The notes under the pieces: generated by a model | Told to the model about the DNA's origin: nothing | The model's database searches: none | What the model saw: only the letters and a program-made list of their open reading frames with translations | IMG/VR virus record: IMGVR_UViG_3300026286_000004 | Direction: 5' to 3' (one strand) | DNA length: 64,000 nucleotides | Source of the DNA: a virus | Taxonomy: Duplodnaviria > Heunggongvirae > Uroviricota > Caudoviricetes | Translations under genes and position numbers: made by a program | Shown: one piece after another, positions 9,604 through 63,060 of the stretch | How positions within the stretch are numbered: the first letter of the stretch is position 1 | Layout of the letters: every line of letters starts with the position of its first letter

Positions 9604-9619
9604 GCGTGTGCTGAATCAG

Positions 9620-16495: not shown

Positions 16496-16498
16496 GTT

Positions 16499-22495: not shown

Positions 22496-22525
22496 TCACG
22501 CGCGGGCACCGGCGTCATCTCGGAC

Positions 22526-22663: not shown

Positions 22664-22678
22664 TCGGTAGGGACGACG

Positions 22679-27444: not shown

Positions 27445-28448
27445 CGCTGCGCTTGCGGCCCATCCAGATCCTGGAAGCCGTCGAGGACTTGGGCCGCCGT
27501 GTCCGGCAGCCGAAGTTCATCCAGTACCTGACGTTCACGGCGTTCGGCGCCGACGATCCGGCCAAGAATCAGCAGCTGGTCTCGCGCATGTTCACGGCGC
27601 TGTCGACGATCGCGGAGCCGTTCCTGATCACCGACGACATGACGCATGTCGTCAAGGCCGCCGCGGACGCCCTCGACGATTCGGACATCCTCGACCCGAC
27701 GCTGGCGCCGTCCCCGTACGGGATCGCCCGGTTCAACACGCCGCTGCCGGTGCTGGACGCCCGCGGCCGGAAGATGCTCGCGCACTGGATGATGTGGCAG
27801 CCCGTAACCAAGAGCGGACCGGACGCGTTCGGGGTGGTCCGGGAACGAGCCGGGGTCGCTGTGTCGTCGTGGAACGACACGGACGACCCGGACGACATCT
27901 ACGGGATCTTGAAGGATCTGCTGCCGGAGAAGATCCCGCAGTTCGATGCCATCGTCGGGCGGTGGGGCCTGCTCGGGGTCGACTTCGTTCCGTCCGGGAG
28001 CCAGCTCGGACCGCCCGCGACCGGTTTACCGGCCGAAGCAGAGCGAAGGATCGTCGCCGACGGCGACACCCCGAACCGGCCGACCAACATGATCCGGTAT
28101 GCACACGCCCTCTGGCTGCTGCTCGGGCAGACGATCGTCGAAACCGAACGGCAGGACATCCGGCCGCGCCGGAAAGGTCCGCGCCGGATGAACCTGCCGA
28201 AACCGGTCACCGTGGTGAAGTTGCGGCATATCGCCAAGCCGCCGTCCGGCGAGCCCGCTGACGTGCACTGGCGGCACCGTTGGTACGTCCGTGGGCATTG
28301 GGCGTGGCGGCAGTGCGGGAAGGATCACCCGATGGCGCAGGAGTATGACCGCGGCCACCGGGTCCGGCTCTGGATCAGCCCGTACGTCAAGGGCCCGGAC
28401 GGTGCGCCGTTCGTGCAGTCGGAGAAGGTCAACGTCCTGGCCCGGTGA
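27441..28448 (+). CDS. hypothetical protein, paralog B (HRWYVRGHWAWRQ..RVRLWISPYVKGPD)
   Basis: Homologous to the 26135 product in both the N- and C-terminal blocks. Confidence 0.55.
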   Translation: MTLRLRPIQILEAVEDLGRRVRQPKFIQYLTFTAFGADDPAKNQQLVSRMFTALSTIAEPFLITDDMTHVVKAAADALDDSDILDPTLAPSPYGIARFNTPLPVLDARGRKMLAHWMMWQPVTKSGPDAFGVVRERAGVAVSSWNDTDDPDDIYGILKDLLPEKIPQFDAIVGRWGLLGVDFVPSGSQLGPPATGLPAEAERRIVADGDTPNRPTNMIRYAHALWLLLGQTIVETERQDIRPRRKGPRRMNLPKPVTVVKLRHIAKPPSGEPADVHWRHRWYVRGHWAWRQCGKDHPMAQEYDRGHRVRLWISPYVKGPDGAPFVQSEKVNVLAR

Positions 28449-28565: not shown

Positions 28566-28642
28566 GCCGGGGAGGGAATTTCGCTCCGGGAAACACCCCG
28601 TCCCCGGCGTAACCACGACCGCCTACCGGCCTCATCAAGGGC

Positions 28643-35106: not shown

Positions 35107-35145
35107 GCGTAACGACCGTCGCTGACCGGCGTCATCTGCGGCATG
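35107..35145 (+). promoter_or_regulatory. class-1 start-associated motif (representative): GCGTAACGACCGTCGCTGACCGGCGTCATCTGCGGCATG
   Basis: GCGTAAC-N18-TCATC-N7-ATG. One of about 25-30 copies. Confidence 0.6.
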
Positions 35146-35832
35146 AAGACCGATCACGTCTCCCGGCTGCTGACCGCGCCGCGCCTGTTCACCGCCGTTG
35201 TCGGTTCTCGCGCGTACGGTCTGGCGAACACGGGTAGCGATACGGACAAGTTCGGTGTCGCCCTACTGCCTGCGACCGTCTTCCTCGGCCTGAACCCGCC
35301 GGCGAAGGAAGCACTGACGTACCACTCGACAGGGACCGCCGACGACATCACGGTCCACGAGGCCGGTAAGTACCTGTCGCTGGCGCTGCGCGGCAACCCG
35401 TCCGTCCTCGAGACGTTCTGGCTGACCGACTACCTCGATGTCTCGCCGCTTGGTCGGTCCCTGCTGGAGCTACGCGACGCGGTCCTTTCCCGGCGCGAGG
35501 TCGCGTCCTCCTACCTCGGGTACTGCTCCGCGCAAGCCCACGGGATCGCCGTGAAGCAGGCCACGAAGCACGAGAAGTTCGGCCGGCACCTGTACCGGCT
35601 CGCCGAGCAGGCGACCGGCCTGTGGACCACCGGTCGGATCGACCCGGTCGTCGCCGACCCGGAGGCATGCCGGGCGTTCGGACGGTCCTGCGCGAACGGT
35701 GAGACCGCTCCGGCCGAGGCCCTGATCGCCCGGTTGAAGGACACGTTCGAGCAGCCGACACCGCTGCCGGTGCGCGCCGAACAGGACCGGATCAACGACT
35801 GGCTGGTCGCCACCCGCAAAGCGACCCTCTGA
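35143..35832 (+). CDS. Pol-beta-superfamily nucleotidyltransferase-fold protein
   Basis: GSRAYGLANTGSDTDKFGV matches the GS..DxD NTase motif, followed by a helical C-terminal domain. Class-1 motif at 35107-35145. Confidence 0.55.
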   Translation: MKTDHVSRLLTAPRLFTAVVGSRAYGLANTGSDTDKFGVALLPATVFLGLNPPAKEALTYHSTGTADDITVHEAGKYLSLALRGNPSVLETFWLTDYLDVSPLGRSLLELRDAVLSRREVASSYLGYCSAQAHGIAVKQATKHEKFGRHLYRLAEQATGLWTTGRIDPVVADPEACRAFGRSCANGETAPAEALIARLKDTFEQPTPLPVRAEQDRINDWLVATRKATL

Positions 35833-36983: not shown

Positions 36984-37208
36984 ATGCGCATCTTCCTGAT
37001 CCTCGCGATCATCCTCGGTTTCGTCGCCGGCTACATCGCCTCGGTCGCCGTCGGAACACGCTCTCGCACACCGCAAGACCAGCGTGTCGTGCAGCCGTGG
37101 GAGCGGGCCCTGCTGTTGGCCGGCACCGCGGCGATCATCCTGACCGGCGCAGCCGTGCTCGTGCTCGTCATCGTGATCCTCTTCCGATCCGTCCTCGATA
37201 TCGCGTAA
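36984..37208 (+). CDS. small membrane protein (2 TM helices)
   Basis: The stop TAA lies inside the GCGTAA of the next motif. Confidence 0.4.
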   Translation: MRIFLILAIILGFVAGYIASVAVGTRSRTPQDQRVVQPWERALLLAGTAAIILTGAAVLVLVIVILFRSVLDIA

Positions 37209-37241
37209 CGACGTCCGATCACCGGGCTCATCTTGGTCATG
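37203..37241 (+). promoter_or_regulatory. class-1 motif: GCGTAACGACGTCCGATCACCGGGCTCATCTTGGTCATG
   Basis: Same architecture. Its first element contains the TAA stop of the 36984 gene. Confidence 0.6.
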
Positions 37242-39907: not shown

Positions 39908-40473
39908 GTGAGATCTGGCTGACGTCCGACTTGCATTTCGGGCACCCGCACGTCGCGCGGTTGCGCGGCTTTGACGACGTTGACGACCACGACAAGCACG
40001 TCGTGGGGAACCTGTCCCGGATGGTGCGCCACCGCGACGAGCTGTTCGTCCTCGGCGACCTGAGCGTCGGCCGGCTCGACCAGGCCCTCGCGTTGATGGC
40101 GTCCGTCCCGGGGACGAAACACCTGATCCTCGGCAACCACGACGCGGCATTCCCGGGGGCGCGCGGGCACCGGTCCGCGTTCCGCCGCTACCTCGACGTG
40201 TTCGCCACCGTGGCCCTGCACGGCGCGCTGCGAACCGACCACGGACAGATCCTGCTGTCGCACTTCCCGTACGAGGGCGACCACGGCCCGGACCGGTTCA
40301 CGCAGTGGCGGTTGCGGGACAACGGGTTCCCTGTCGTGCACGGGCACACGCACGGCCCGGAACGGTTGACCACATCCGGCGCCGGTAGCGCCCAGGTCCA
40401 TGTCGGCCTGGACGCCTGGGACATGGGACCGGCCAGCGTGCACGACGTCACCGCCTTGATCGGGAGCCGATGA
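39904..40473 (+). CDS. calcineurin-like metallophosphoesterase (second copy in this window)
   Basis: Motifs SDLHFGH, GDL, GNHD and GHTHG. ATGA-coupled start. Confidence 0.65.
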   Translation: MSEIWLTSDLHFGHPHVARLRGFDDVDDHDKHVVGNLSRMVRHRDELFVLGDLSVGRLDQALALMASVPGTKHLILGNHDAAFPGARGHRSAFRRYLDVFATVALHGALRTDHGQILLSHFPYEGDHGPDRFTQWRLRDNGFPVVHGHTHGPERLTTSGAGSAQVHVGLDAWDMGPASVHDVTALIGSR

Positions 40474-41626: not shown

Positions 41627-41692
41627 ATCTCGATCACCGGCACGTCGAGGTCACGGCGGCTTGCGCCTGCTCTGCGTTCAAGGACCCCGGGT

Positions 41693-42357
41693 TTAGCCGG
41701 ACCGACCTGAGCGCAGTCGTGAGCGGCTCTTTGCATCCGCGCAGATTCGCGGCAGCTCGACTTGATCCTCCGACCGGTCGACGATCAGGTACCGGAGGGC
41801 GGCGGGCAGCTGCTGCAGGACCGGCACCACCATGTCGACGGCGCGCTGTCCGCTGTTACGCACTCCGAGCATGACGTTCGGGAGCGGCCAGGCGACATAT
41901 TCGGTGGCCGGCAGGTTGACGTCCGGGTGGAGCGACATCATCAGGTTCCGGCCGTTGTGGTAGGTGTTGCGAACCATATGTTCGAGCGTCAGGCCGCCGG
42001 CGTCGGGAACCTCGCCGGTGTTCAGGCGGAGCAGGCCGTCGGGGTCGGCGACCACCACCCGGAATGTCAGGGTCGGGTGCAGGCCCATCTCGGCGAACGA
42101 GGCCGCGACGGCGCTGGCTTGCCCGGATCCGTTAACGACGGCCGGAATGGCCGGCGGTAGGTGGCTTCGATCTGGTTCACGGCGGCGTCTTTCGGTGTTG
42201 GTCCGGTTGCTTTCTCTTTGCCACCGGACGCCGGCGCAGTCAGGTCGACGTCCTGCTCGGGATGCGGCTTGGTGGCGAACTTCCCGCCCGATCCGCGTGG
42301 GTGGTCGGCTTCGGTGAATTGCGTCGTCGTGCCCTGGATGTGTGCGGGGACATGCAC
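41693..42357 (-). pseudogene. decayed family-X gene: the N-terminal module is intact but the canonical ATG reads ACG, and it is followed by a frame break into the 41693..42088 ORF
   Basis: The reverse strand reads CCGCACACATCCAGGGCACGACGACGCAATTC, compared with CCGCACACATCCAGTGCATGACGACG at 44260. It encodes TTQFTEADHPRGSGGKFATKPHPEQDVDLT. Protein-like reading switches frame near 42140-42160. Confidence 0.4.
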
Positions 42358-45679: not shown

Positions 45680-48600
45680 TCAGAAGCTCCATTCGTCCGC
45701 AGTTTTTGCCGGCACCGGCACCGGGTCCGGGACGTCGCCGAAGTTCCAGTCGTCGGCGTTGGCCGGCTTCGGTGCGGGCCGCTCGACCGGTTCGGAAACG
45801 AAGTCCCAGCCCTCGTCGTCTGCGTCGGCGAGGTCGACGTCGTTGACCACGTCCTTGACCACCTGCTCGACCGGATCTTCGCCGAAGTCCCAGCCGTCGT
45901 CGGCCGGTTCCGATTTGTTGTCCGGCCGCGCGTCCGGGGCGTCGATGGACCACAGGTCGTCGTCGTCGTCGGTCTCTGTCTCGACTGGCTCCGACGCGCC
46001 GAAGACATCCCACGCATCGTCCGTTTCCGGCTCGCTGACCGGGCTGGCGGGCTCGCTGGCAGCCTCCTGCTCCAGACCGGGCTGATCGGTCACGGGCTGC
46101 CCGTCCAGTGCTTCTGCGGCCTCGGAAGCCTCGTCGGCAAAGTCGTCCAGGTCCAGCTCTATCTCTACGGCGTTCTCCAGATCGCCAAGGTCCAGCTCGA
46201 TCTCGTCTTCCAGGTCCCATGCCTCGTCCAGGTCGATGTCCTCGACGGCCGGGCCGCGGTCCTTGCGGACCTGGATGAACGGGGACAGGTCTACGGGCAC
46301 GACCGGTTCGCGCTCCTGCGCGATCTTCGCACCCATCACGGCAGTATCGGTGAAGGCGACCTGCACCGTGTGCGGCATACCGGTCGACGGTTCGTAGATG
46401 CCACGGCCCGGCGGGATCGCGCCCGGGAAGATCGGGGCTTCTTCGGCACGCCGCAGCGCCGACATCCGGTCGCCGGAGGTGGTCGCGCCGACGAGCAGCC
46501 GGGCCAGGTTCGTCTTCAGGCTGCCGAGGCCGCCGATCTTCGCCAGGTCGTCCTGGCGCAACTTCTGGCCGCCGAGCACCAGCGAGACACCCGCGGACCG
46601 GGCCTCCCGGGTGATCTTCCCGGCCAGCGACCCGATCGTGTCCTTGAAGCTGTTCTCCAGCAGCAGCAGTTGCCGCTCTTCCTCGAGGTCCGGGTCGTCC
46701 ATCGGGGTCTTCGGCACGGATGACTTCTCGATCAACGACGTGAACTCGTCGATGAACACGACCAGCCTGCGCGGACGAACCTCATCCGGCAGCTTGTCGA
46801 TGGACTCGGTCCCGTGCTGCTTGTTCAGATCCTTGCGGCGCAGTACCTCCTGGTAGGCCCACCGCATCGCCGCTGCACCGTTCTGCCACGTGTCGGCCGT
46901 CGCGAGAGCGAACGACGTCGCGTACTTGAAGTCGGCGGCCCCCTTGACCGGGTCGACGACGATCGCGTCATGCCCGGCCAGCAGCACGCCGGTCAGCAGG
47001 TTCGTCATCGCGACCGACTTACCTGACCCGGACCCACCGATCACGCCCAGGTGCGGCGACTCCTTCATGTTCCAGTTGTCCGGGACTCCGGCCACGTTCA
47101 CGGCCAGCGGGATCGACAGCGACCCGTCCGGGATGCCGTCCATGATCAGTTCGACGCGCGAGGGCATCGGGTCCCGCTCGGAGACCTGCAGCACCAGCCG
47201 GGCGGCCGTGGTCCGCTCCCGGTCAAGCTCGATGAAGTCGTTCCCGGTCGAGGTCCGCAACGTCGGCAGGATCTTCACGATCCCCGGAATCGACGCACCC
47301 TGCGGCAGGTCGAACGTCAACACGGTCACCTGCGGGTTCGTCTCGACCGGCTCCACCTTCGCCAGCACCGGGGTGAGCGCGCCCGGGATGTCGAGTTTCG
47401 ACTTCAGCCACGCCTGGTCCCAGTCGAGGGCCACAACCTTGTCGCGGTCCTTGACGGAGACGATCTCGACGGACGACGGTCTCGCGCCGGCGTAGATGAT
47501 GCACCCGTCCGCGGCAGCATCCACGCGCAGCCACGGCGTCGCCAGTGCCTGCCGCATCCGGTCCGCCGCGCCGCGCACGTCCGCGAGGGTCACCCCGCCA
47601 TACAGCCGCAGCGTGATCTCCCAGACGGACGGCTCGGCGAACCGCCTGTTCCCGGACGGCTCCGGGGTCAGCGCGCGAACCGCGACGACCTCGGGGCGCG
47701 CGAGACGAGCCGCATCGAAGGCATGGTTGACGTGCGAGGCGAGCAACCACTGGTACGCCGGCGTCGGCCGGGATGCGGACACGACCTTCTCCGGTGCCGT
47801 CGGCAGGCCCGGTTCGGAGGACCACGTGACGCAGAACGCGGTTGCGTGGCGGGTCGCCTTCCGGCCCACGCTCGGCGGGGTCCACCCGGTCACAGACACG
47901 AACGGGGCCGCGTTCAACGTGGACGCCAGTTTCGTCTCCGCCTTCGGGTTGCCGTGCTCCATCGGGTCCATGCCCTTGCGTACCTGGAAGACGGTGTGCT
48001 TGATCCGCTTCCCCTGGTAGGTGTCCTCGCTCGAGACCCGGGGCGCGATCGTAGGCGGGTTCACCCCCTGCTTGAGCACCTCCGTCCAGACGCCGTTCCA
48101 CCAGTCCTCTTCGAAGATCTCGCCCAGCGCGTCCGGGAATTTCGGGTCGATCGTCTTCAGATCGTCCGTCGCGGCGCCGAGGAACAGGTGCCCGCCGTCG
48201 GGTGACCGGTGGTCGATCGCAGCGTCCAGTCGCGTCCCGCCGCCGAGCATCGGAGCGAACCCGAGGGCGCGTGCCGTGGTCCAGCCCGGGCCTTCCGGCC
48301 ACGCCCCGTTCACCTGCCACATCGCGACCGGTGAGTCGTCGGTGTGCATCGCCGTGACCGCGGTGACCATGACGGGCGCGACCTTGAGCGCGTCGCAGAC
48401 CTGCTGAACCCAGGTGCGGACTGCGGTGTCCAGGACCTCCGGGGATGTTGCCGGATCGCCGATGTCGGGGATGTCGCCGGACGGGGAGATGACGATCGCG
48501 AACTTGCGTGGGTGGATCGTCCCGGTGACCTCGACCCCGTCCACGTCGTTCGGTCTCGGGATGAGTGTCATGTCCACGCCGGCGCCGACGGTCGGCGCGA

Positions 48601-50131
48601 TCTTCGGCGCCTTCAACCGCATCGTCTCGGACGACTCGGCACCGAGCGTCTCGAACTCGTAGACCGTCCACGTCCCGACGGACCGGACCTCGTACAGGTC
48701 CGGCGCCGGGTCGACCTTCAGGATCTCCCACCGGGCGCGCCACTGGTCTTCGGCGGCGAGCATCAGCACGATCGGGCGGACGCTCTCGTCCTTCAACGGC
48801 ATGTCGTCATCGACCGCACCGACGAACATCGACCCGCCGTCGCGGCGGTGGTCGACCACGGCCGGCATACCGGAGACCGCCATGAACCGGTCGCCGAACT
48901 TGTTCGACCCGCCGTCGGTGACCCGCTTGGCGACCTTTCCCGACCGGGCCGCCTCCCATCCGGGGCCGTCCGGCCAGTCCGCGGTGACTCGCCACAGCGC
49001 CTTCGTCGCACCGTCGGCGTGCATGCCTTCGACGCCGGTGACGACGGCCGGGGGCAGGCCGAGCGCGATGCATGTGCGCCGCATCAGGACGTCGATGACG
49101 ACCTGGACGATGTCCGCCGGGGTGCCCGGGTCGGTCAGATCCGGGGCGTTCCCGGACGGCGCGGTCACGATGGCGAACTTCTGCGGGTGGATCGTGCCGG
49201 GCAGCGGTTGCCCGCCGGCCTCGTTCGGTCGGGTCAGGACGGTCACCTCGACGCCGCCGCCGACGGTGGTCGCGACCTTGTCGGCCTTGTCGCGGACCTC
49301 CGCCGCGCCACCGACGCTGGTTGCGATGAAGTCGTCGATCTGCCAGTCGCCGACCATGACCGAGTCGATCAGCTGTGGCAACGGATCGAACTTCAGCGAC
49401 TCCCACCGCGGGCGCCACTCCCGCCGGGCCCGGACGACCGCGCGCCACCGGGCCAGCGCCTTGTTCGACCAGGCCGGGTACAGCCCGGCGAGGAAGCCGA
49501 GGAACGCAAGCCCGGAGACGATGACCATCGGCGGGCCGAACTCGAGGCCGGGGACGGCCTCTTCGATCTTCGGCGGCCCGTACTTCCCGGCCGCAGCGCC
49601 CGCCCCGGCGCCGGCCAGGCCGGACAGCAGTGCCAGCGGGCGGAACGGGAAGGTGTTCAGTCGCAGGCCGGGGGATCCGGACTTGCGGCGCATCGCGGCC
49701 GTCATCACGGCGACCACGATGAACATTGCTGGCGGGTTCGCCAGCGCGTACACCGGCTCCTTCACCGGCAACGCGATCGAGGTCCACGCAGCCGCGACCG
49801 CAGCGAACCACGACGCGCGCGGCGGCCACCCGGGCAGCCAGTCGAGCGTCGGGACGAGCAGGCGCCACCGCAGGCTGCGCCACATCTGGTACGACGCCTG
49901 CAGGTCTTCCTCCTTCTCGCCCGCGGGTTGCGCGCCGCGGCCCGGGACCTTCCGCCCGGTCATCAGCGGCGGCTTCTCCAGGATTGCCGAGATCACGAGC
50001 GCAGCGAGCAGGACCGGGACGCCCGGGTAGCCCTTCCACGCGGCCACGCCGATACCGATGATGCCGACGAAGAACGCGAACGGCGCCAGCGACGCCGACC
50101 CGGCCTGCTGCTGGCTGCGAGTGGCAGGCAT
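45680..50131 (-). CDS. FtsK/SpoIIIE-family DNA translocase-like giant membrane protein (TraB/TcpA-like), with a duplicated internal domain and an acidic Trp-rich C-terminal tail
   Basis: N-terminal TM helices. Two repeats of about 250 aa carry the TIHP(Q/R)KFAI(V/I)..PSG..PD motif. Walker A GSGKSVAMTNLL and Walker B LVVFIDEF. The tail holds six (D/E)(D/E)xW(D/N)F motifs and ends DEWSF. Start ATG 50131 overlaps the upstream TAA. Confidence 0.75.
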   Translation of the reverse strand: MPATRSQQQAGSASLAPFAFFVGIIGIGVAAWKGYPGVPVLLAALVISAILEKPPLMTGRKVPGRGAQPAGEKEEDLQASYQMWRSLRWRLLVPTLDWLPGWPPRASWFAAVAAAWTSIALPVKEPVYALANPPAMFIVVAVMTAAMRRKSGSPGLRLNTFPFRPLALLSGLAGAGAGAAAGKYGPPKIEEAVPGLEFGPPMVIVSGLAFLGFLAGLYPAWSNKALARWRAVVRARREWRPRWESLKFDPLPQLIDSVMVGDWQIDDFIATSVGGAAEVRDKADKVATTVGGGVEVTVLTRPNEAGGQPLPGTIHPQKFAIVTAPSGNAPDLTDPGTPADIVQVVIDVLMRRTCIALGLPPAVVTGVEGMHADGATKALWRVTADWPDGPGWEAARSGKVAKRVTDGGSNKFGDRFMAVSGMPAVVDHRRDGGSMFVGAVDDDMPLKDESVRPIVLMLAAEDQWRARWEILKVDPAPDLYEVRSVGTWTVYEFETLGAESSETMRLKAPKIAPTVGAGVDMTLIPRPNDVDGVEVTGTIHPRKFAIVISPSGDIPDIGDPATSPEVLDTAVRTWVQQVCDALKVAPVMVTAVTAMHTDDSPVAMWQVNGAWPEGPGWTTARALGFAPMLGGGTRLDAAIDHRSPDGGHLFLGAATDDLKTIDPKFPDALGEIFEEDWWNGVWTEVLKQGVNPPTIAPRVSSEDTYQGKRIKHTVFQVRKGMDPMEHGNPKAETKLASTLNAAPFVSVTGWTPPSVGRKATRHATAFCVTWSSEPGLPTAPEKVVSASRPTPAYQWLLASHVNHAFDAARLARPEVVAVRALTPEPSGNRRFAEPSVWEITLRLYGGVTLADVRGAADRMRQALATPWLRVDAAADGCIIYAGARPSSVEIVSVKDRDKVVALDWDQAWLKSKLDIPGALTPVLAKVEPVETNPQVTVLTFDLPQGASIPGIVKILPTLRTSTGNDFIELDRERTTAARLVLQVSERDPMPSRVELIMDGIPDGSLSIPLAVNVAGVPDNWNMKESPHLGVIGGSGSGKSVAMTNLLTGVLLAGHDAIVVDPVKGAADFKYATSFALATADTWQNGAAAMRWAYQEVLRRKDLNKQHGTESIDKLPDEVRPRRLVVFIDEFTSLIEKSSVPKTPMDDPDLEEERQLLLLENSFKDTIGSLAGKITREARSAGVSLVLGGQKLRQDDLAKIGGLGSLKTNLARLLVGATTSGDRMSALRRAEEAPIFPGAIPPGRGIYEPSTGMPHTVQVAFTDTAVMGAKIAQEREPVVPVDLSPFIQVRKDRGPAVEDIDLDEAWDLEDEIELDLGDLENAVEIELDLDDFADEASEAAEALDGQPVTDQPGLEQEAASEPASPVSEPETDDAWDVFGASEPVETETDDDDDLWSIDAPDARPDNKSEPADDGWDFGEDPVEQVVKDVVNDVDLADADDEGWDFVSEPVERPAPKPANADDWNFGDVPDPVPVPAKTADEWSF

Positions 50132-50703
50132 TACGCCACCAGTGACCGGATGCGTTGCACGATGCGCGGGTCGGCCTGCTTCGTGACAGGGACTGCCCGC
50201 CGCACGACACGCTCGAGCGCTGCGCCGTGGACCAGCCTCGCGGACGGGAACGTCGCCGCCCACAGCGACACCTTCCCCTCCCGCCGGGACGGCCACACGA
50301 CGACGACCGGGACGGTCAGGTGCACGTCATACATGGACAGGTACGCCGTGAACGCCTCCTGCGCCATCTGCACGGACTTCTTGTCGCACGCCGCGAACGG
50401 CTGGAAACCGCGGCGGGTCTTCCCGCCGAACGTCCACAGGAAACCCGGCTTCCACGACTTGCTGTCGATGAGCATGACGCGGTTGCTGGCGATGACCACG
50501 TGGTCGATGTTGATCGACATGCCGGGGATCGGGACACTCACGTCATGCATGACCGTGATCTCGGTACTGCCGGCCATCTGGTTGAGTACGTACGCGGTCG
50601 CCGCCTCGCCGCGGGTGCCGGCGCTGACCGTGCCCGCGTTCGTGGCCCACCTGGTGTCACCGGAGAGCGAGGTCGCGGCCCGTCCGATGATCTGCCCGCT
50701 CAC
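50131..50703 (-). CDS. NERD-like (nuclease-related domain) protein
   Basis: NIDHVVIASNRVMLIDSKSWKPG matches the NERD core. GTG start. Confidence 0.5.
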   Translation of the reverse strand: MSGQIIGRAATSLSGDTRWATNAGTVSAGTRGEAATAYVLNQMAGSTEITVMHDVSVPIPGMSINIDHVVIASNRVMLIDSKSWKPGFLWTFGGKTRRGFQPFAACDKKSVQMAQEAFTAYLSMYDVHLTVPVVVVWPSRREGKVSLWAATFPSARLVHGAALERVVRRAVPVTKQADPRIVQRIRSLVA

Positions 50704-50873
50704 AGGAGCCCCTGGATGATCCGGACGATGAACATCACGGCGAGGGCCGCGAGGATCACCATGACCACGGTCGATCCCGGTCCGTTCAGCCAGTTCGTGA
50801 CGTCATCGTTCGACCGGCCGGTGCCACCTGCCGGCGCCCGGTTGCCGATGTCGGTGCTGTTGTCGTCCGCCAT
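50700..50873 (-). CDS. small membrane protein (57 aa)
   Basis: AAAAGGG RBS. C-terminal TM helix VVMVILAALAVMFIVRIIQGLL. Confidence 0.4.
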   Translation of the reverse strand: MADDNSTDIGNRAPAGGTGRSNDDVTNWLNGPGSTVVMVILAALAVMFIVRIIQGLL

Positions 50874-50899
50874 ACCCTTTTCAATGCGGCAGATCGGGC

Positions 50900-51250
50900 G
50901 TTACGGCGGCGAACTCCCGGGCGGCGGGAGGGCACCTTCGCTCGCGCGACCACGGGAGGGAGCCCGTGCCGCCCGGCGTTGACAGCCGGTCAGACCGGCG
51001 CAGGTGCCCCGTCGTCCGGTGGGTAGGATCAGCCGTCTTACCCGCCGCCCGGGGTCCTACCCGGCATGAGTGCGGGGGCAGACAATCCAGCCCTCCGGGG
51101 AGAGGCAGCCTTCGGTTCGGGACCGAGGCCACACCACCACAGAGAGCCTTCGACGTCGCCGATGCCGTTAACAGCCGGACAGGCCGGTGCAGGCTGCCCT
51201 TCGGGGCGAAAGGGGAAATCTCCTACTCCCCGGAGGGCCGGTCTTGTCTT
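50900..51250 (-). ncRNA. candidate structured non-coding RNA or long 5' leader, transcribed from a class-1 promoter with no ORF
   Basis: On the minus strand, GCGTAAC-N18-TCATT (51259-51288) is followed by about 350 nt of GC-rich self-complementary sequence with no start codon. A long-range helix gccctccgggga...tccccggagggc is visible. Confidence 0.25.
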
Positions 51251-51302
51251 GCACCCGTAATGACGCCGGTGGCCGGAGGTCGTTACGCGCTTTGGGAAAA
51301 GA

Positions 51303-51347
51303 AATCCCCGGCCCGCAATGAGTGAGTGAGGGTGCGGGCCGGGGATT
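51303..51347 (-). terminator. rho-independent terminator (14-bp perfect stem, 16-nt loop, T-run on the minus strand)
   Basis: aatccccggcccgc-aatgagtgagtgaggg-gcgggccggggatt, followed by TTTT on the minus strand. Directly downstream of the 51354 stop. Confidence 0.55.
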
Positions 51348-51353
51348 CCCGGT

Positions 51354-51908
51354 TCAGGACGGGATGTCGATCCCGTGGTCGGCCAAGAGGTTCTCGAGCA
51401 CCGTGACCCGTGCTTCGGCGTCGCGGTGCAATTCGCCCGGGGTCTGCCCTTCGGACCAGCACGCCGCGACGGCGATCCGGTCGCGCACGGTACCGTCCGG
51501 GCCGGTGACCGGGTGGAGCAGGACGGTGGCCTGTTCGACGTAGTTCGGCGCGTCCGGGAACGCTTCCAGTACGGTCAATGCCCACGCCGCGAGGTTCGTC
51601 AAAGCGTCTTCCGGGGTGATGACGGTCGTCTGCCCGTCCTGGAGGCCCGTGACGAACGACCCGGCCGTCGTGTCGCCGTCGGCGGTTAGATCCTGGTATT
51701 CGTCGCGGACCTCGACGAGCGCCCATTCCGCGTCGGAGCGCCCGTTCGGGTTCGGGACGCGCAGCACCAGGTGGTCCCGGGCGGCCGGGTCAGCCTGGTC
51801 GATGACCGCCTCGGGCCATACCGTCCCGATGGCCCGGATCAGTGTCGCGGACAGGACCAGCGGAAGCGGGTAGGCGACCTTGATCGTCAGCCAGCCAGTG
51901 GTGTCCAT
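51354..51908 (-). CDS. hypothetical protein (184 aa)
   Basis: GGGAAGG RBS before the M21 start of the ORF. Confidence 0.5.
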   Translation of the reverse strand: MDTTGWLTIKVAYPLPLVLSATLIRAIGTVWPEAVIDQADPAARDHLVLRVPNPNGRSDAEWALVEVRDEYQDLTADGDTTAGSFVTGLQDGQTTVITPEDALTNLAAWALTVLEAFPDAPNYVEQATVLLHPVTGPDGTVRDRIAVAACWSEGQTPGELHRDAEARVTVLENLLADHGIDIPS

Positions 51909-51939: not shown

Positions 51940-53103
51940 TCACGCGACCGCAAGGATGACCTTTCCAAGTTCGTCGCGCATCCGCTGCGGGATGGCCGCG
52001 TCCTGCGGCTTCATCGCGAGCAGCGAACGGACGGCGGGGACGACAACATCCTTGCGGCCAGCGGCGATAGCGGAGTCGCACACGTCGATGGCGGCGTTCC
52101 AGCGGTTCAGCGTTGGGTTGTGGCCCATCAGGGCGACGATGGCCTGGGTGAGGGCGAACAGGACGTCCGGTGTGTCGGTCGTCCACTTCACGAGCGACGG
52201 GTCCGCGAGGACCGCTTCGGGGTCGTACAGGCCGCGGGCCTTGAACCACTGGAAGAACATCTTGCCCTCGCCTTCTCCGACGCACCCGTTGATCACGAGC
52301 ATCAGGGTGGGGGCGTCGCCACGGCGGACGTAGCGCAGCATCTTCTGCAGGTTGTCCCATGACCGGGGCGACGGCCAGGCACCGGAGGACTTGTCCGCGT
52401 CGGCCGGGCAGCCGGGGTCGATTTTGGACGGGTTGTGTTGGAGATAGCCGACAACGGCTGACGCATTGGCGAGCTGCTCCGCCTCGGTCGGGTTGCCGGT
52501 CAACTGCTCCAATGACGGGACGATCTCGTTGGCGAACCCGGACAGGACACCGTTCAGCCACGCCTCGCGGTCGAACTGCCACTTGCAGTGCCAGAAGCGG
52601 TTCGCTGTCGCGGGAGCCAGTTCCTGGCCGTTCACGGCGGACTCGGGCGGGTTCATCGCCGCGACCATCGAGACCGTCTTGGGGAGCTGGAAGTCGCCCG
52701 CGCACCGTTCCTGGATCACGCGGAGCATCCCGGCCTGCGTGGACGGCGGGACGGTGGTCAACTCGTCGAAGAAGATGGTCGCCTTCGGGGCGGCCGCGGC
52801 CCGGATCGCGAACGCCGGGACGGTGTTGACCGTGGTCGGCTGCGCGACCACGTCGCCGTTCGGCATTGTCGTGACATCGGAGATCACGGGCAGGCCGGAA
52901 AAGTCGACCGCCTCCCGGATCGAGCCGATCATCGTTTCCAGGTGACGGCCCCACGCGGCCGACCACTTGGTCAGCTGGGCGGTCTTGCCGATGCCCGGGT
53001 CGCCGATGAAGGCGGCGGGCACGTCCGCGAGGACGGCTGCGGCATACGCGCGCAGCATTGGTGTTCCGGGCAGGTTTTTCAGGTTCTCACTCATGCCCCA
53101 CAT
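51940..53103 (-). CDS. MoxR-like AAA+ ATPase
   Basis: Walker A GDPGIGKT and Walker B IFFDELT. Minus-strand class-1 motif GCGTAACGACGTGCGATCACCGGCGTCATGTGGGGCATG. The alternative start is 53094. Confidence 0.7.
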   Translation of the reverse strand: MWGMSENLKNLPGTPMLRAYAAAVLADVPAAFIGDPGIGKTAQLTKWSAAWGRHLETMIGSIREAVDFSGLPVISDVTTMPNGDVVAQPTTVNTVPAFAIRAAAAPKATIFFDELTTVPPSTQAGMLRVIQERCAGDFQLPKTVSMVAAMNPPESAVNGQELAPATANRFWHCKWQFDREAWLNGVLSGFANEIVPSLEQLTGNPTEAEQLANASAVVGYLQHNPSKIDPGCPADADKSSGAWPSPRSWDNLQKMLRYVRRGDAPTLMLVINGCVGEGEGKMFFQWFKARGLYDPEAVLADPSLVKWTTDTPDVLFALTQAIVALMGHNPTLNRWNAAIDVCDSAIAAGRKDVVVPAVRSLLAMKPQDAAIPQRMRDELGKVILAVA

Positions 53104-53130
53104 GACGCCGGTGATCGCACGTCGTTACGC
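53092..53130 (-). promoter_or_regulatory. class-1 motif on the minus strand: GCGTAACGACGTGCGATCACCGGCGTCATGTGGGGCATG
   Basis: 26 of 30 positions identical to the 37203 copy. Contains the helicase TAA stop. Confidence 0.6.
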
Positions 53131-54444: not shown

Positions 54445-55041
54445 CTATCGGCCGGCGACCTTCTCGGCCCGGTCCAGGTCGGCGGACTCCTGTGCCGTCC
54501 CGCCACCGTTGACGAGCAGGTAGATTTCCGCTTCGGCGGCAACCGTCGACACCCGGCTCGTGACGACCGGCACCAACGCCCGGTTGCCGAGCAGCCGCCG
54601 GCCACGCTCGCTCAGGCCGGACCGGGTCGCGTACGGGCCGTCGCCGGTGTCGATGGTCTTCTCGACCCACTCGGGTTCCAGCCAGGACGCCGGGATCGCA
54701 ATCTCATTGTCCTCGAACGCCATCCACGCGGTCAGCCGCTGCTTGCCGTCGATGACGGCGTACATGTCGATGCCGTCGTTGAGCGGGTTTGGGCCGTCGG
54801 ACCACTCGTGCGTGCGGTCGTTGATGACGATCGCCGGGATCGGGACGCCGCGCAGGACCGACTCGATCAGCCGGACCTGCTGCATCGTCGTCCAGACCTG
54901 GCCGCGCTGGTACGGCGCGTCCAGAGTCATGCCGTCCCCCCGCACCAGCCGGGACAGCTCCGACAGCATCCGGGAGGAGGCCGGCAAGGACTGGTGCCGG
55001 ATCGGCTCGGTCGTCTGCAGCGTGATCGTCATGTCGTCCAT
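54445..55041 (-). CDS. DUF262/ParB-sulfiredoxin-like domain protein (DGQQR-like IDGKQRL)
   Basis: YAVIDGKQRLTAW. Minus-strand class-1 motif GCGTGCCGACGCC..CCGGCCTCATGGACGACATGACG. Confidence 0.55.
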   Translation of the reverse strand: MDDMTITLQTTEPIRHQSLPASSRMLSELSRLVRGDGMTLDAPYQRGQVWTTMQQVRLIESVLRGVPIPAIVINDRTHEWSDGPNPLNDGIDMYAVIDGKQRLTAWMAFEDNEIAIPASWLEPEWVEKTIDTGDGPYATRSGLSERGRRLLGNRALVPVVTSRVSTVAAEAEIYLLVNGGGTAQESADLDRAEKVAGR

Positions 55042-55072
55042 GAGGCCGGTCCGCCGGCGTCGGCACGCGGCG

Positions 55073-55504
55073 TCAGAGAATCCACGCCTCCCAGTAGAAC
55101 TTGACGGTCTCCGTCGAGGCGAGGGCGTCGGCGACGTCGGCCCAGGACAGCCCGCCGATGCCGCACCCGATCTGCGGGATCGCGACCCGGGCAATGCCGT
55201 TCGCGCCGGCCCATTCCGCGGTCGCTCGGGCCGCGTCGAGCACGAGACCGATCCGGGCGTCCCGGCCGGGCCAGACCTGGGTTGCCATGTTGATGATCGC
55301 CGGGCCAGTCTCCGGCTGCCAGACGTATATGCCGCCGGGGTGCAGGGCGCGGGAGTGGCATGCGTCCCGGTAGGCGGTCACCATGTCGGGGTGGCGGGCG
55401 GCGAACTGCTTCGCGATCCCGGCACCCATGACGCCGGCAAGGTTGACTCCATGTCCGAGGGCGGGCGCGTCCGAGTCGAACAGGTTGCCGCGCTTGACGA
55501 TCAT
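55073..55504 (-). CDS. macro-domain protein (ADP-ribose binding or hydrolase)
   Basis: GNLFDSDA..GHGVNLAGVMGAGIAKQF. Confidence 0.7.
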   Translation of the reverse strand: MIVKRGNLFDSDAPALGHGVNLAGVMGAGIAKQFAARHPDMVTAYRDACHSRALHPGGIYVWQPETGPAIINMATQVWPGRDARIGLVLDAARATAEWAGANGIARVAIPQIGCGIGGLSWADVADALASTETVKFYWEAWIL

Positions 55505-56028
55505 GCGGGAAGCCTTTCCAGGAACGCGCGGGCCTTAGCGATGTGCTCGTCGGTCAGTCCGGTGAACTGGTCGACCTGGATGACCAGGTGCGCGCTGCCG
55601 TGCTCGGCGAACATCTCCCGGTCGTCCGTGGTCGGCTCGTCGTCGAACCAGACGAACGGGCGGTCGCCGGCGACCTCGAGGATCCCGCGGCCTTTCGTGT
55701 ACTCGCTCATCTTCCGGTACGCGACCGGCAGCCCGCCGGGCAGCCCGATCCGGTTCCCGATCAGGTCGGCCAGGTCGGTCCACGTCGTCGCCCACGCCAG
55801 GTCGGCCAGGTCGGTCAGCGACAGCAGCCGCTGACCGTCGGCCGGGTCCAGACGCATCGTCCACGTCCTGCCGATCCAGTCTTCCTGGTCGTAGACGATC
55901 AGGCCCTTCTGGCTGGCTTCCGTGACCGGGATCCGGTAGCGGTTCAGGACACCGTCGATGTCGATGAACACGAGTGGACGCCGCTCGTAGGCAGAGTCGT
56001 CCAGCGTCTGTGCGCGTGAGTCCTTCAT
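55501..56028 (-). CDS. HAD-superfamily phosphatase-like protein
   Basis: Motif I VFIDIDGVLN. Confidence 0.55.
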   Translation of the reverse strand: MKDSRAQTLDDSAYERRPLVFIDIDGVLNRYRIPVTEASQKGLIVYDQEDWIGRTWTMRLDPADGQRLLSLTDLADLAWATTWTDLADLIGNRIGLPGGLPVAYRKMSEYTKGRGILEVAGDRPFVWFDDEPTTDDREMFAEHGSAHLVIQVDQFTGLTDEHIAKARAFLERLPA

Positions 56029-56038
56029 TACCGTTCTC

Positions 56039-56761
56039 TCACAATCCGGTCGGGAGGTGGTCGCCGGGGTGGCCTTCGACGCGGGTACAGCGCGGGGAGT
56101 ACCGGTCGCCGCCGAACCCACACTTCTGCGGCCTGTTCCAGAGCAGGCTGAACCGTTTCGCCACCGCCACAGCGACGTGCGCGCCGACAACGTCAGCGGG
56201 CTGGGTGGCGTCGACGATGATGAACCGCGTCGGGTCGTCGGCGGCTTGGGCGAGGAAGCCTTCTCGGACCTTCCTGTGAAAGTCGATGATCTTCGACTCC
56301 ATCCGGTCCTTCTGGCCGCGCTGACCGACTCGTTCCAGGCCGACCGCCGGGTCCAGGTCGAGCAGGATCGTCAGGTCCGGGACCAGGCCGCCGGTCGCGG
56401 TCATCGACATGTTCCACACCACGTCCCGGGTCAGGTGCCCGTCGGCGGTCTGGTACGCGACCGAGCTGTCGATGTACCGGTCGCAGATCACGTCCACGCC
56501 GCTGCGCAGCGCCGGCCACAACACCTGGTCGGCGTGGTGTCCGCGGTCCGCGGCGAACAGCAGCGTTTCGACGACCGGGGACAGGTGCTCGCCGTGCAGG
56601 ACCATCTGCCGGATCTCGCGGCCCAGGCCGGTGCCGCCCGGTTCCCGGGTCACCAGCGGTGTCCGGCCGGCGAGCCGGAGAGATTCCTCGATGCTTTTGA
56701 TGGCGGTCGTCTTGCCGGCACCTTCGATGCCTTCGACGGTGATGAACTTTCCGGTCGTCAC
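56039..56761 (-). CDS. tmk: thymidylate kinase
   Basis: FITVEGIEGAGKTT and a LID region REPGGT. GTG start coupled by GTGA. The N-terminal extension of the 397-aa ORF is rejected. Confidence 0.75.
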   Translation of the reverse strand: MTTGKFITVEGIEGAGKTTAIKSIEESLRLAGRTPLVTREPGGTGLGREIRQMVLHGEHLSPVVETLLFAADRGHHADQVLWPALRSGVDVICDRYIDSSVAYQTADGHLTRDVVWNMSMTATGGLVPDLTILLDLDPAVGLERVGQRGQKDRMESKIIDFHRKVREGFLAQAADDPTRFIIVDATQPADVVGAHVAVAVAKRFSLLWNRPQKCGFGGDRYSPRCTRVEGHPGDHLPTGL

Positions 56762-60520: not shown

Positions 60521-60573
60521 ATTTGCTCTTTGCCGCTGCACGTCGTTCCGGCGGCACCGCACACATACTGGGC

Positions 60574-61212
60574 ATGACGACCCCGTTCAACGAGAGCGAT
60601 CATCCGCGCGGAGCAGGTGGGCAGTTCGCGCCGAAGGCTCGCTCGGAGCAGGCCCGGCTGGACGCTCCATACGGCGACGGGCACCCGTGGAACCAGGATG
60701 CGGAGCAACGGGAACGGTTGGAGGTCGAGCTGGCTGGGCAGATCGCCGCGTTCCCGCATTTCGTGGCCGACCCGCGAGCGTGCGCCGCGCGCATCTTCCA
60801 GATCGTCGCCGTGTACCGCGGTGTCCCATCCGAGGTCGCCGAAGCCGCGACACCGGATGCCGTGGCGGCAGCCAGCCGCGGCGGGCCGTCCGGCGAGGGG
60901 ATGTACCGGGCGATGCTTCCGGTGATCGACGCCGCCCAGGCCCGCGAGTACGCCCCGAAACCGCAGCCGGACCGGATCCCCGACGTCCCGACGCTGAGAG
61001 AAGTCGAAGCCGCGAAGGCGTACCTGGATGCGCTGGAGCCGGTCCGGCAGATGTACCGGCCCGACTGGGAGCGGAGGAACGGCGGGTACGGGCCGACCGT
61101 CGCGCAAGTTCGCACACATGCCCATGAACGCTCCTTACAGGATGACCGGATCCGTGCCGCGAAAGTCGAGTACGACCGGCTGAAGGCGGCCTACGACGCC
61201 GCGAACGGCTAG
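60574..61212 (+). CDS. family-X N-terminal module protein (213 aa)
   Basis: N-terminus MTTPFNESDHPRGAGGQFAPKARSEQARLD. Promoter variant CCGCACACATACTGGGCATGACGACC. Confidence 0.55.
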   Translation: MTTPFNESDHPRGAGGQFAPKARSEQARLDAPYGDGHPWNQDAEQRERLEVELAGQIAAFPHFVADPRACAARIFQIVAVYRGVPSEVAEAATPDAVAAASRGGPSGEGMYRAMLPVIDAAQAREYAPKPQPDRIPDVPTLREVEAAKAYLDALEPVRQMYRPDWERRNGGYGPTVAQVRTHAHERSLQDDRIRAAKVEYDRLKAAYDAANG

Positions 61213-62489
61213 CTGTCGAACACGACCAGGTACCGCAGCGCAACCTGGTCGATCGGGGTGATGACTTCCTGGTTGAGGACGTTGCACGTTCCCGCCCGGA
61301 CGTGGATCGAGTCGAACCGGCGGCCCTTGGTGTCGCTGACCTTGCCGCGCAGGATGTCGTCCCACACGTACTGGCCTTTGCGGTCCGGGAGGCACTCGTT
61401 GCCCATGATCACGTCGGCGCTGAACATGAACCACTGCCGGTCGACCCCGGACGACCAAACCCCGCCCGCGGCATACCCAGCCGCCTTCGTCGACGTTTCG
61501 GACGTGTACACGCAGTTGTAGCCGCCGAACATGTTGCCGGCCAGGCCGACGGTCGAGATCGACCCGCGCGGCACGAACCCGGTCGTCAGGATCGACAGCA
61601 CGTTGTGGTTTCGGGTGCCGTGCCAGTTGCGCTGGACGTTCCCTAGCTTCGCGGCGAGGGCGTCGAACTGGTCGGCCTTACGGGTGTCGGTGATCTCGTA
61701 CGCGCCGACGAGCTTCGCGCCTGTGACGCGCGCCGAATGCTGGGCTTTCACGGTCGAGGTGAACCGTCGGCCCAGGTCATCCATGACCTTCCCGTCGCTG
61801 ACGGGTGCCAGGCGGTACCGGAACAGCGCCAGCGGGTCGATGTCAGCGCCGGCTTCCTCCTTGACCAGCCCGACCTGCACGGAGGCACGCAACCGGTCGA
61901 GGAAATCAGCTTGTGCCGCAACCTGATCGGGCGTGACCAGGAAGTCCTCATGCCAGCCGCGGCGCGCACCGACCTGCTGCGGGATCAGCCGCAGGTACCG
62001 TTCCAGGTTCTCGATGCGGGCGCTGCCGGTCAGCTTCGGCAGTTCGTTCAGCAGCACCGCAGCCTCATCGATCGTGCGGGTCGTGACCAGCCCGAGCGGA
62101 GTGGTGACCTGCCCGTCCCGGACAGTCATCCGTCCGCCGGAGATGTTCGCGATCTGGTGGGCGTTCGAGGCGACCAGCCGGTCGATCAGGGCGACCACGG
62201 ACGGGTCGGACACGGACGCAAGACCCTCGCGCGCCAACGATTTCAGGGGTGTGTCGTCGCTGGTTTTCGCCGCGTGCGCGGTGACCGTCTTGACTTCGCT
62301 GTACCCTTCGCGCGTCTTGGACCGCACGAGCCGGTCGAACGTGTGCTGCCCGCCGGGATACGGCTTGGTCCGGCCAGTGTTCCCGACTCGCCCCCAACGG
62401 GCGTGCACCGTATCGCCGTCGAGGCGCAGGTGGTAGAACTTGTTGTTGTTCTCCTGCGTGTTGACCTTCACGAGCATGATCTCGCTCAT
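61209..62489 (-). CDS. PARP-like ADP-ribosyltransferase (WGR domain, helical domain, ART domain with an H-Y-E triad)
   Basis: WGR motif NKFYHLRLDGDTVHARWGRVGNTG. Catalytic motifs NWHGTRNHNVLSILTTGF, GNMFGG..STKAAGYA and LNQEVIT. GGGAGAGAAG RBS before M17. Confidence 0.7.
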   Translation of the reverse strand: MSEIMLVKVNTQENNNKFYHLRLDGDTVHARWGRVGNTGRTKPYPGGQHTFDRLVRSKTREGYSEVKTVTAHAAKTSDDTPLKSLAREGLASVSDPSVVALIDRLVASNAHQIANISGGRMTVRDGQVTTPLGLVTTRTIDEAAVLLNELPKLTGSARIENLERYLRLIPQQVGARRGWHEDFLVTPDQVAAQADFLDRLRASVQVGLVKEEAGADIDPLALFRYRLAPVSDGKVMDDLGRRFTSTVKAQHSARVTGAKLVGAYEITDTRKADQFDALAAKLGNVQRNWHGTRNHNVLSILTTGFVPRGSISTVGLAGNMFGGYNCVYTSETSTKAAGYAAGGVWSSGVDRQWFMFSADVIMGNECLPDRKGQYVWDDILRGKVSDTKGRRFDSIHVRAGTCNVLNQEVITPIDQVALRYLVVFDS

Positions 62490-62583
62490 CGCTTCTTCTC
62501 TCCCGAAAGCACTTGTGCTGCAAGGTTTCGCAGCCACCGGGCGGTGTCACTCAGGCCGTCGCGGAAAGCCTGCGCGGCAGCCC

Positions 62584-62955: not shown

Positions 62956-63060
62956 GGGTTCTGCTCCTAATGGTTCGGGGTGCTTCTACCCCTTATGACG
63001 CCGGTCGCCGATGATGCTTACGCTACCGGGGAGGTCTGACAGTCCTCGGGCCAGAAAACG

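Follow-up and report, generated by a model that had tools for sequence, protein, structure and literature searches.

A predicted tandem RNA module, supported by covariation, ahead of a small-protein/NERD/FtsK-like operon of a putative actinobacterial mobile element

In a 64,000-nucleotide (nt) stretch of DNA from the IMG/VR virus record IMGVR_UViG_3300026286_000004 (the window), a 480-nt gap at 50874-51353 separates two genes that, like the features of the gap itself, are read on the minus strand. Upstream lies a 184-amino-acid (aa) gene (51354-51908; phrog_14583 match, function not known), and downstream a 57-aa open reading frame (ORF; 50700-50873), the first gene of an operon, whose hydrophobic C-terminal stretch fits a membrane helix and whose ATG at 50873 is preceded by the ribosome-binding site GAAAAGGG. 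Reading into the gap from the 184-aa gene, one passes a terminator-like hairpin (51293..51347), a repeated promoter motif (51260..51288) and then about 350 nt in which we recognize two tandem homologous domains, h1 and h2, that can be read as one module. A linker (50874..50913), carrying a box GATCTGCCGCATT (50883-50895) and a Shine-Dalgarno sequence AAAGGG (50875-50880), joins h2 to the 57-aa ORF. Judged by the alignments described below, h1 and h2 represent a previously uncatalogued RNA family supported by covariation, and one of a familiar kind, namely a structured module in the leaders or spacers of mobile elements.

The composition of the gap and its pattern of small insertions and deletions mark it as non-coding. 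GC content at third codon positions (GC3) reaches 0.82-0.95 in the called genes of the window but only 0.67-0.72 in the gap, whichever of the six frames is taken; relatives with 96-99% identity differ inside the gap by insertions and deletions of 1 and 2 nt; and neither strand of it showed a conserved frame with homologs. Searching the whole window with Rfam 15 gave no match at the gathering score, and a 900-nt region searched at E <= 10 returned noise only, the best match being the shape of the terminator hairpin against F6. ARAGORN found no tRNA or transfer-messenger RNA (tmRNA) in the window. An earlier sequence-only reading of this locus had described a promoter firing into a GC-rich, ORF-free stretch with long-range complementarity, ending at the ribosome-binding site of the 57-aa membrane-protein gene, and had cautiously proposed a small RNA or a cis-regulatory leader; our results support that hedged proposal on sequence grounds. 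The complementarity it pointed to (gccctccgggga / tccccggagggc) is present, as is the ribosome-binding site, and the Rfam and ARAGORN searches agree with its statement that signatures of RNase P, tmRNA, signal recognition particle RNA and common riboswitches are lacking. The comparison with Rfam that it had suggested thus matched the gap to no catalogued RNA family.

A 391-nt stretch of the gap folds better than its shuffles (z = -3.5); since the plus strand folds almost equally well (z = -3.3), folding energy alone cannot choose the strand. At the distance of the close relatives (L003-L012, 96-99% identical) conservation in the gap does not exceed that of the flanking genes, and these sequences were too similar for covariation analysis.

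A 38-nt direct repeat (51166-51203 and 50977-51014, 79% identical) led us to compare the two halves of the 350-nt stretch. The first domain, h1 (51075..51252, an extended rod running from the inferred transcription start, with a core match at 51088-51240), has an outer stem P1 (51226-51238 with 51090-51102; GCCCTCCGGGGAG/CTCCCCGGAGGGC) and an inner stem P2 (51191-51199 with 51103-51111; GGGCAGCCT/AGGCTGCCT), with the junction letters GUUAACG at 51166-51172 and CGAAGG at 51109-51114. The second domain, h2 (50914..51055), repeats this plan with P1 at 51041-51053 and 50916-50928 (CCCGGGCGGCGGG/CCCGCCGCCCGGG), P2 at 51002-51010 and 50929-50937 (GGGGCACCT/AGGTGCCCT), a small hairpin A at 50985-50999, GUCAACG at 50977-50983 and CGAAGG at 50935-50940. 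In both domains a 27-31-nt insertion, J1/2, interrupts the 5' strand only, and the 5' strand of P2 is followed by GCRCC, hairpin A, YGUYAACG, a variable hairpin P3, a single A and the 3' strand of P2. The stem sequences differ between h1 and h2 with pairing retained, and the junction letters are identical in both. Folding of h2 gives z = -2.55. In h1 the outer stem extends further outward, such that the first nucleotides of the predicted transcript, GCAAGACAAG..., pair with ...UUGUCUGC; folded from the inferred start, h1 has its nucleotide 1 already paired and reaches z = -3.95.

Across the family, P1 comprises 9-16+ bp and P2 7-9 bp, and of these stems only the pairing is retained. The 3' strand runs nearly unbroken through P3, P2 and P1, the extras (J1/2 of 20-30 nt, optional hairpin A) all lying on the 5' strand, and the near-invariant letters CCU-GCG(CC)...GUCAA-CG...CG-A-AGG line one asymmetric junction. 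This modelled layout is what would be expected of a recognition site for a protein or another macromolecule. Two further pairings, both examined by eye, were rejected: a pseudoknot between J1/2 (GACGGC) and GCUGUC can form in h2 alone and is not conserved, and an anti-Shine-Dalgarno pairing of J1/2 of h1 (CCCUUU) with the ribosome-binding site is not conserved elsewhere.

Beyond folding energy, the structure is supported by covariation across 12 divergent copies, a check that the sequence-only reading had proposed. In an alignment of five sequences, 99.2% of pair cells held standard pairs and 20 of the 25 pairs had changed on both sides. With twelve sequences, 94.7% of cells were paired, compared with 40-51% when partners were slid by 1-3 columns; 23/30 pairs were compensatory, all 13 pairs of P1 covaried, and none of 500 shuffles matched any observed measure. 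It counts against these figures that the alignments were fitted to the model, so that the pair counts are somewhat inflated; the slid controls and the wholly different P1 sequences make an artefact unlikely. Invariant or nearly so are the three innermost pairs of P2 (CCU/AGG), the two pairs closing P3 and the junction letters, with CCUGCG and CGAAGG present in 12/12 sequences and GUCAACG in 10/12. A G·U pair closes P2 in 4 of the first 5 sequences, and overall G·U pairs outnumber A·C combinations by 18 to 5, which argues that the gene-sense strand is the one that folds. We therefore consider it very probable that the module is a real, conserved, structured non-coding element of the sense strand.

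Members beyond the window were found by structure and by gene content. A covariance model built on h2 alone recovered h1 (52.6 bits; 93.9 and 83.8 bits with two other models) as well as copies in the contigs L042 (34), L047 (23) and L043 (18), and rebuilt models together with two IMG/VR pattern scans added L099, L226 (= L234), L199, L228, L127 and L136, which brought the divergent copies outside the window, in metagenomic and viral contigs, to about 10. Homologs of the NERD-domain protein encoded by the second gene of the operon led to contigs carrying the same operon. In L047 (NERD 66% identical) the module lies at 1488-1619, with a second, divergent copy at 1272-1393 directly after a MoxR gene; in L042 (58%) it lies two genes further upstream, at 1643-1755; and in L043 (57%) it sits between unrelated genes, at 1838-1970. 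In L048/L049 (63%) and the plasmid pACHL01 only about 80 nt, without a module, precede the small ORF. Members found in viral contigs share no flanking protein with the window. Copies of the module lie between genes, co-oriented with their neighbours in all but one clear case, and the genes beside and downstream of them are unrelated. Two loci with a weak P2 (L106 and L137) were not counted as secure members. Two called ORFs touch these slots: in L047 an 85-aa minus-strand ORF (1556-1813), probably spurious, overlaps both the RNA copy at 1488-1619 and the spacer that follows, and in L042 a 122-aa minus-strand ORF (3089-3457) occupies the slot upstream of the small membrane-protein gene and may be a real gene.

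A second viral pattern scan, made with a sister pattern carrying the GTTMACG variant (CCTGCGCC..GTTMACG..CGAAGG), gave no new members and serves as a negative control: of the 55 loci collected, none matched at E <= 0.1. Nothing was found by blastn of the region against phage and plasmid records or by protein-based scans of viral contigs with the two flanking genes; a search with an alignment of six NERD sequences returned 28 loci, none with the module; and a scan of genome contigs with the 21-nt core of the repeat gave 27 single matches in unrelated phyla, which we estimate to be about the number expected by chance and none of which scored with the models. Only two copies occur in the 64 kb of the window. 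Six further window gaps (9442-9899, 16051-16890, 21127-22678, 39908-40469, 41627-42341 and 60563-61208), each of 450-1550 nt and without a confidently called gene, contain no copy by model R2. A miniature inverted-repeat or repetitive extragenic palindromic (MITE/REP-type) repeat was rejected on this copy number and on P1, which differs at 13/13 pairs between the copies; a hammerhead or other ribozyme core was rejected as well, with no match by Rfam or inspection.

One member stands in an RNA-rich setting. In L234 (IMGVR_UViG_3300015374_000004) the module, at 4072-4203, starts a few nt past the stop codon of a Ro60 gene (TROVE and vWA domains) on the same strand, and stops 8 nt short of the ribosome-binding site for a small ORF that looks LexA-like by eye. 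The surrounding segment (2074-4300) holds in turn a tRNA-Cys gene (2074-2145), a Y/sbRNA-like RNA (2196-2271, 28.4 bits), the 532-aa Ro60 gene, the module and the LexA-like ORF; at about 2285-2410 a second Y RNA with a GGUGUUCAAAUCC T-loop can be made out by eye.

The sequence-only reading had placed a class-1 promoter at 51259-51288 on the minus strand, and this 30-mer (GCGTAACGACCTCCGGCCACCGGCGTCATT) is an exact match that is unique in the window and belongs to a motif repeated six times there. Its core, GTAAS-N15-17-CGTCAT, has 4 exact copies where 0.04 are expected; two more come from relaxed searches, and all six are co-oriented with the next gene. Besides the copy in the gap (GCGTAAC-N16-CGTCAT, 51260..51288), they lie on the minus strand at 53102..53128, upstream of a MoxR-type AAA_5 gene (ATG 53094), and at 62995..63021, where a 38-nt leader with a Shine-Dalgarno sequence leads to an ATG at 62955; and on the plus strand at 35109..35135 (ATG 35143, RlaP-family gene), at 28609..28635 (CCTCAT variant; ATG 28643, NAD-dependent ligase) and at 37205..37231 (GCTCAT variant; ATG 37233, an unknown 93-aa ORF). 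For four of these copies (28609, 35109, 37205 and 53128) the ATG comes exactly 8 nt after TCAT, a geometry that suggests leaderless mRNAs beginning with the A of that codon. By analogy with this spacing, the transcript from the gap copy would start at the G at about 51252, leaving it, alone among the six, with a long untranslated stretch of 378 nt before the ATG. The ORF listed for the MoxR gene (51940-53103, minus) probably starts too far upstream, the promoter geometry giving 53094.

AAC-N16-17-CGT is the classical spacing and sequence of promoters read by extracytoplasmic-function (ECF) sigma factors. The six class-1 motifs resemble these in showing GTAAC, a 16-nt spacer and then CGTC, that is, a -35 AAC and a -10 CGT 16-17 nt apart, repeated upstream of genes; they differ in that the extended conserved ACCGGCGTCAT is specific to the element. 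No sigma-factor gene was found among the approximately 60 window ORFs scanned. In L047, the 66%-identity relative, the -10-side half GGYGTCATTACNGGTG recurs and the -35 box is only loosely similar. Taken together, the six copies suggest that the element has a regulon of its own, consisting of leaderless mRNAs whose promoters show ECF-like geometry.

Just upstream of the promoter, the hairpin of the 184-aa gene pairs 51333-51347 with 51303-51317 across a 15-nt loop and runs directly into the T-run TTTCTTTTCC (51293-51302). The sequence-only reading had called this a terminator with a perfect 14-bp stem and a T-run; the T-run and the perfection of the stem stand, and the length has to be corrected to 15 bp. 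As a GC-rich hairpin (51303-51347) followed immediately by a U-run, it has the form of an intrinsic terminator, and it escaped the automatic terminator scan solely through its loop, the scan being limited to loops of 8 nt. No U-run follows P1 in h1, h2 or any other full copy. Reading the sequences by eye, we find that the hairpin stem GAATCCCCGGCCCGCA corresponds to the P1 stem GAACCCCGGCACGGGT of the divergent full copy that occupies the same position in L047 (1272-1393; 20.3 bits with model R2 and 19.2 bits with R3, neither significant). The window terminator stem thus appears homologous to the outer stem of a full module; the bare hairpin may have arisen from a module by loss of the interior, or the module from a hairpin. 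Neither this apparent homology nor the tandem repetition of one module was part of the sequence-only reading.

Downstream, the stop codon of the 57-aa ORF overlaps the start of a gene for a 190-aa NERD-domain protein (50131..50703, minus; Pfam PF08378, E = 1e-10), which is followed by a gene for an FtsK/SpoIIIE-TrwB-like ATPase of about 1480-1538 aa (45680..50296, minus; Pfam). The listed ATPase ORF overlaps the NERD gene by 166 nt and probably starts too far upstream; in L042, L043 and L047 it directly follows the NERD gene, so that its true start is probably near 50130. Small ORFs of related sequence precede the NERD gene in L042, L043, L047 and L048; in pACHL01, too, this place is taken by a small ORF. 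We rejected the idea that the 57-aa gene is a type I toxin because it is the conserved first cistron with or without the module. The box GATCTGCCGCATT stands before the ribosome-binding site of the small gene in the window (50883-50895, minus), L047 (1665-1677) and L048 (725-737); being found with or without the module (L048 lacks it), it could serve as an operator or second promoter element.

The FtsK-like protein had no match in 50,697 phage records. Homologs were found only in megaplasmids, those of Micrococcales (370-600 kb, 32-36% identity) and of Bifidobacterium (C-terminal third, 27%), and in pACHL01 the trio of small ORF, NERD and FtsK-like genes adjoins a type IV coupling-protein gene. 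From these megaplasmid matches and this neighbourhood we infer that the window belongs to a large, plasmid-like conjugative element whose host is an uncultured actinobacterium. At 68% GC, the window also codes for a VirB4-like AAA_10 ATPase, MoxR-type AAA_5 and VWA proteins, several helicases and exonucleases, thymidylate synthase, dihydrofolate reductase, the NAD-dependent ligase and a class II (B12-dependent) ribonucleotide reductase (5779-9033, plus) with an intein (Intein_splicing and PT-HINT matches at residues ~372-500). A set of RNA-repair and ADP-ribose genes (35143-35832, plus; 54445-56190 and 61209-62537, minus), comprising RlaP nucleotidyltransferase, GmrSD_N/DUF262, Macro, HAD_SAK_2 and PARP+WGR, is unusual plasmid cargo and is relevant to the Ro60 lead. 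The segment 56191-56757 (minus) is absent from the GC3-filtered gene list; it is not intergenic, since by eye it encodes a thymidylate-kinase-like protein (ITVEGIEGAGKTT...). Two adjacent paralogous genes (26069-27082 and 27345-28448, plus) both match phrog_15934, a family whose function is not known.

RNA elements that control expression in cis are known from the leaders of conjugation operons (PMC13401043, PMC8191782, PMC11658703). The zipper-type attenuator cATT and conAn2 of pLS20, and canT of Tn916, resemble the module in being highly structured, orientation-specific, non-coding stretches of about 400 nt, with long imperfect stems, between a promoter and the conjugation genes of a Gram-positive mobile element (PMC13401043, PMC8191782, PMC11658703). 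All three are from Firmicutes, however, and are similar to the module neither in sequence nor by model, and the module occurs also outside conjugation operons. Similarly, HK022 put and Bacillus EAR are compact folded RNAs that lie promoter-proximal or intergenic, co-oriented with an operon, with stems conserved by covariation, and they act without an element-encoded protein (PMC11658703). Their architecture is unlike that of the module, and no homology was found. Indeed, put consists of two hairpins of about 35 nt and EAR contains a pseudoknot. A zipper-type attenuator needs an intrinsic terminator overlapping the stem extension, and antiterminators need terminators to bypass. The long imperfect stems of the former are present here, but no terminator was found at 51252-50873 or further downstream; for the latter (put, EAR, canT, conAn2), location and orientation fit, and there was no Rfam match and no U-tract terminator detected in the operon.

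Combined with the results above, these comparisons lead us to a tentative model. An element-specific promoter of ECF-sigma-like geometry (AAC-N16-CGT) would start a transcript at about 51252, whose first nucleotides would pair at once and close the 178-nt rod h1; the second rod, h2, would follow, and then the ribosome-binding site of the small-membrane-protein/NERD/FtsK-like operon. Because no shared element-encoded protein accompanies the module, its folded junction would be recognized by a host factor, which could be RNA polymerase or some other RNA-binding activity that is conserved. The module would act in cis, setting how much downstream message is made or survives, as put, EAR, canT and leader attenuators do. 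Transcription from about 51252, the role of the junction as a recognition site, the host partner and the direction of any effect are all proposals. That the module is a real structured element acting on its own transcript seems to us an evenly balanced proposition; that it does so by controlling how the downstream message is elongated, terminated or preserved is a tentative reading, possible and no more than that.

Several observations weigh against this cis-control model, beyond the inflated pair counts mentioned above. No U-tract terminator was found downstream in the operon or after h1 or h2, so that attenuation or antitermination would have no visible target. The module is dispensable for the operon, as L048, L043 and pACHL01 carry the same operon without it. 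Several copies start 3-40 nt past the stop codon of an upstream gene, a position that would suit a role at 3' ends or in processing equally well. One candidate, L127, appears antisense to both of its called neighbours, and another, L205, has a poor P2 and lies inside a probable 300-aa ORF; neither was counted as secure. Finally, only about 10 independent copies are known.

Two other explanations follow close behind. The rods might be cut from the primary transcript and accumulate as stable trans-acting RNAs, serving as a protein scaffold or decoy as Y RNAs do with Ro60, or as 6S RNA does, a reading that we regard as unlikely yet worth serious attention. Like Y RNAs (YrlA, Yrn1; RF02553, RF00019), the module joins its 5' and 3' ends in a long terminal stem and keeps conserved letters in an internal loop (PMC4201824); its invariant NCGAAGG is similar to two motifs bound by Ro, GGUCCGA and GNCGAA(N)G, and both kinds of RNA occur in tandem on mobile elements of Actinobacteria, with four successive YrlA matches in L235. 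In addition, the module adjoins unrelated genes, and the window carries RNA-repair-type genes (RlaP, HAD_SAK_2, Macro, PARP). Since the L234 module directly follows a Ro60 gene on the same strand, we examined Y-RNA membership using the features set out by Chen et al. 2014, among them a Ro60 gene within ~4 kb on the same strand (PMC4201824). Such a gene accompanies the module only in L234/L226: tblastn with the L234 Ro60 protein found nothing in the window or the other member loci, and no TROVE domain was seen there by Pfam scans, including those of the ~60 window ORFs. The Y_RNA, YrlA and sbRNA models (RF00019, RF02553, RF01656) gave no match at E <= 10 in the window region and none at E <= 1 on eight member loci, and on the 2.2-kb L234 region at E <= 5 they left the module unmatched while finding the canonical Y-type RNA upstream of Ro60 (2196-2271; 28.4 bits, E = 0.004). 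Conversely, 14 other Ro60 loci carry YrlA-like RNAs and not the module. When compared with GNCGAAN0-1G, CGAAGG is present in 12/12 members but on the 3' strand of the helix, opposite to its place in Y RNAs, and a CCGAAGG on the 5' strand, before P2, occurs in h1, L047 and L234 only. There is no T arm, D arm or other tRNA-like domain, as no member has an Rfam tRNA match, the window has none by ARAGORN, and no GUUCRAAUC loop was seen by eye; nor does a terminator or known processing site mark a 3' end. On the failed models, the Ro60 proximity and the missing arms we rejected membership in the Y RNAs; the resemblance in overall design remains, and it keeps the idea of a stable RNA alive as a rival.

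Somewhat less probable again is that the rods are processing or stability elements, that is, RNase III-cut stems or exonuclease blocks that would make adjacent cistrons independent of one another or more stable, and that could double as terminators lacking a U-tract. The T7-type RNase III hairpins are likewise long, imperfect, co-oriented and placed between cistrons of a mobile element, and this role would suit the length of P1 (13-30 bp), the paired 5' end and the position of copies 3-40 nt after stop codons in L234, the first copy of L047, L042 and L199. The window terminator hairpin, which we read as P1 of the first L047 copy without its interior, implies that a bare stem can fill the same slot. 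Yet for such a role a stem alone would suffice, which leaves the junction letters, the P2/P3 geometry and the similarity of J1/2 unexplained, and no U-run follows any full copy. The T7-type intergenic hairpins have no conserved multi-helix junction with invariant letters. We think it improbable that the fold forms in single-stranded DNA during conjugative transfer, as a priming site or promoter like F-plasmid Frpo or ssoA. The element does resemble actinobacterial megaplasmids bearing type IV secretion systems, folding of the plus strand is nearly as good as that of the minus, the complement of GUCAAC is TTGAC, and TAGCGT, the CS-6 motif of ssoA, is found in L042, though only there. Against this, the excess of G·U over A·C means that the gene-sense strand folds, when a Frpo-type promoter needs the template strand; no sigma-70-type boxes were found, with no -35/-10 pair inside a stem and GTCAAC unpaired in the model; a promoter lies immediately upstream, its inferred start being the base of the rod; and several members reside in contigs predicted to be viral, one of which also has a tRNA gene and Ro60. 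No more credible is a tandem riboswitch aptamer sensing a small molecule in each domain. The conserved letters are gathered in a junction within P1, one hairpin is optional, tandems are known for glycine and other riboswitches, and in L234 the 3' strand of P1 abuts the ribosome-binding site, but P1 is much longer and more stable than switching P1 helices, and the members show no Rfam aptamer match, no visible expression platform (neither a conserved terminator nor an anti-Shine-Dalgarno element) and heterogeneous downstream genes without a shared function. Least plausible is that the stretch has no function, whether as spacer rich in GC, as the remains of a gene or as a selfish element with inverted repeats: the module is polymorphic in presence between relatives, and high GC generally lowers folding energies, but the 23 compensatory pairs of 30 and the near-invariant junction recur on contigs without shared flanking proteins, and the P1 arms, unlike the terminal repeats of transposons, are wholly different between the two copies, which are all that the 64 kb contain.

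For large actinobacterial plasmids and phages very few regulatory RNAs have been described, and none is known for the small-protein/NERD/FtsK-like transfer module of Micrococcales-type megaplasmids. What the locus adds is an RNA family of ~100-150 nt whose pairing is supported by covariation and whose junction is sharply conserved, together with a defined class of promoters, most of them apparently yielding leaderless mRNAs, and a natural contrast between the same operon with and without the module. Should the module prove to be a processing element only, its annotation would still prevent false ORF calls; in the corresponding slots of L047 and L042, ORFs of 85 and 122 aa were called, the one in L047 across its RNA copy. 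More speculatively, and with rather more doubt than belief, we suggest that it may be a new portable class of RNA with which the plasmids and phages of high-GC Actinobacteria tap into a conserved machine of their hosts, and this would explain its retention beside unrelated genes and its tandem duplication. Candidates for that machine are RNA polymerase, through protein-free antitermination or attenuation, and Ro60 or RNA quality control, with the module as a Y-RNA-like partner having a circularly permuted binding helix. If either is indeed the partner, put-like or Y-like biology would reach a new phylum, and plasmids as well.

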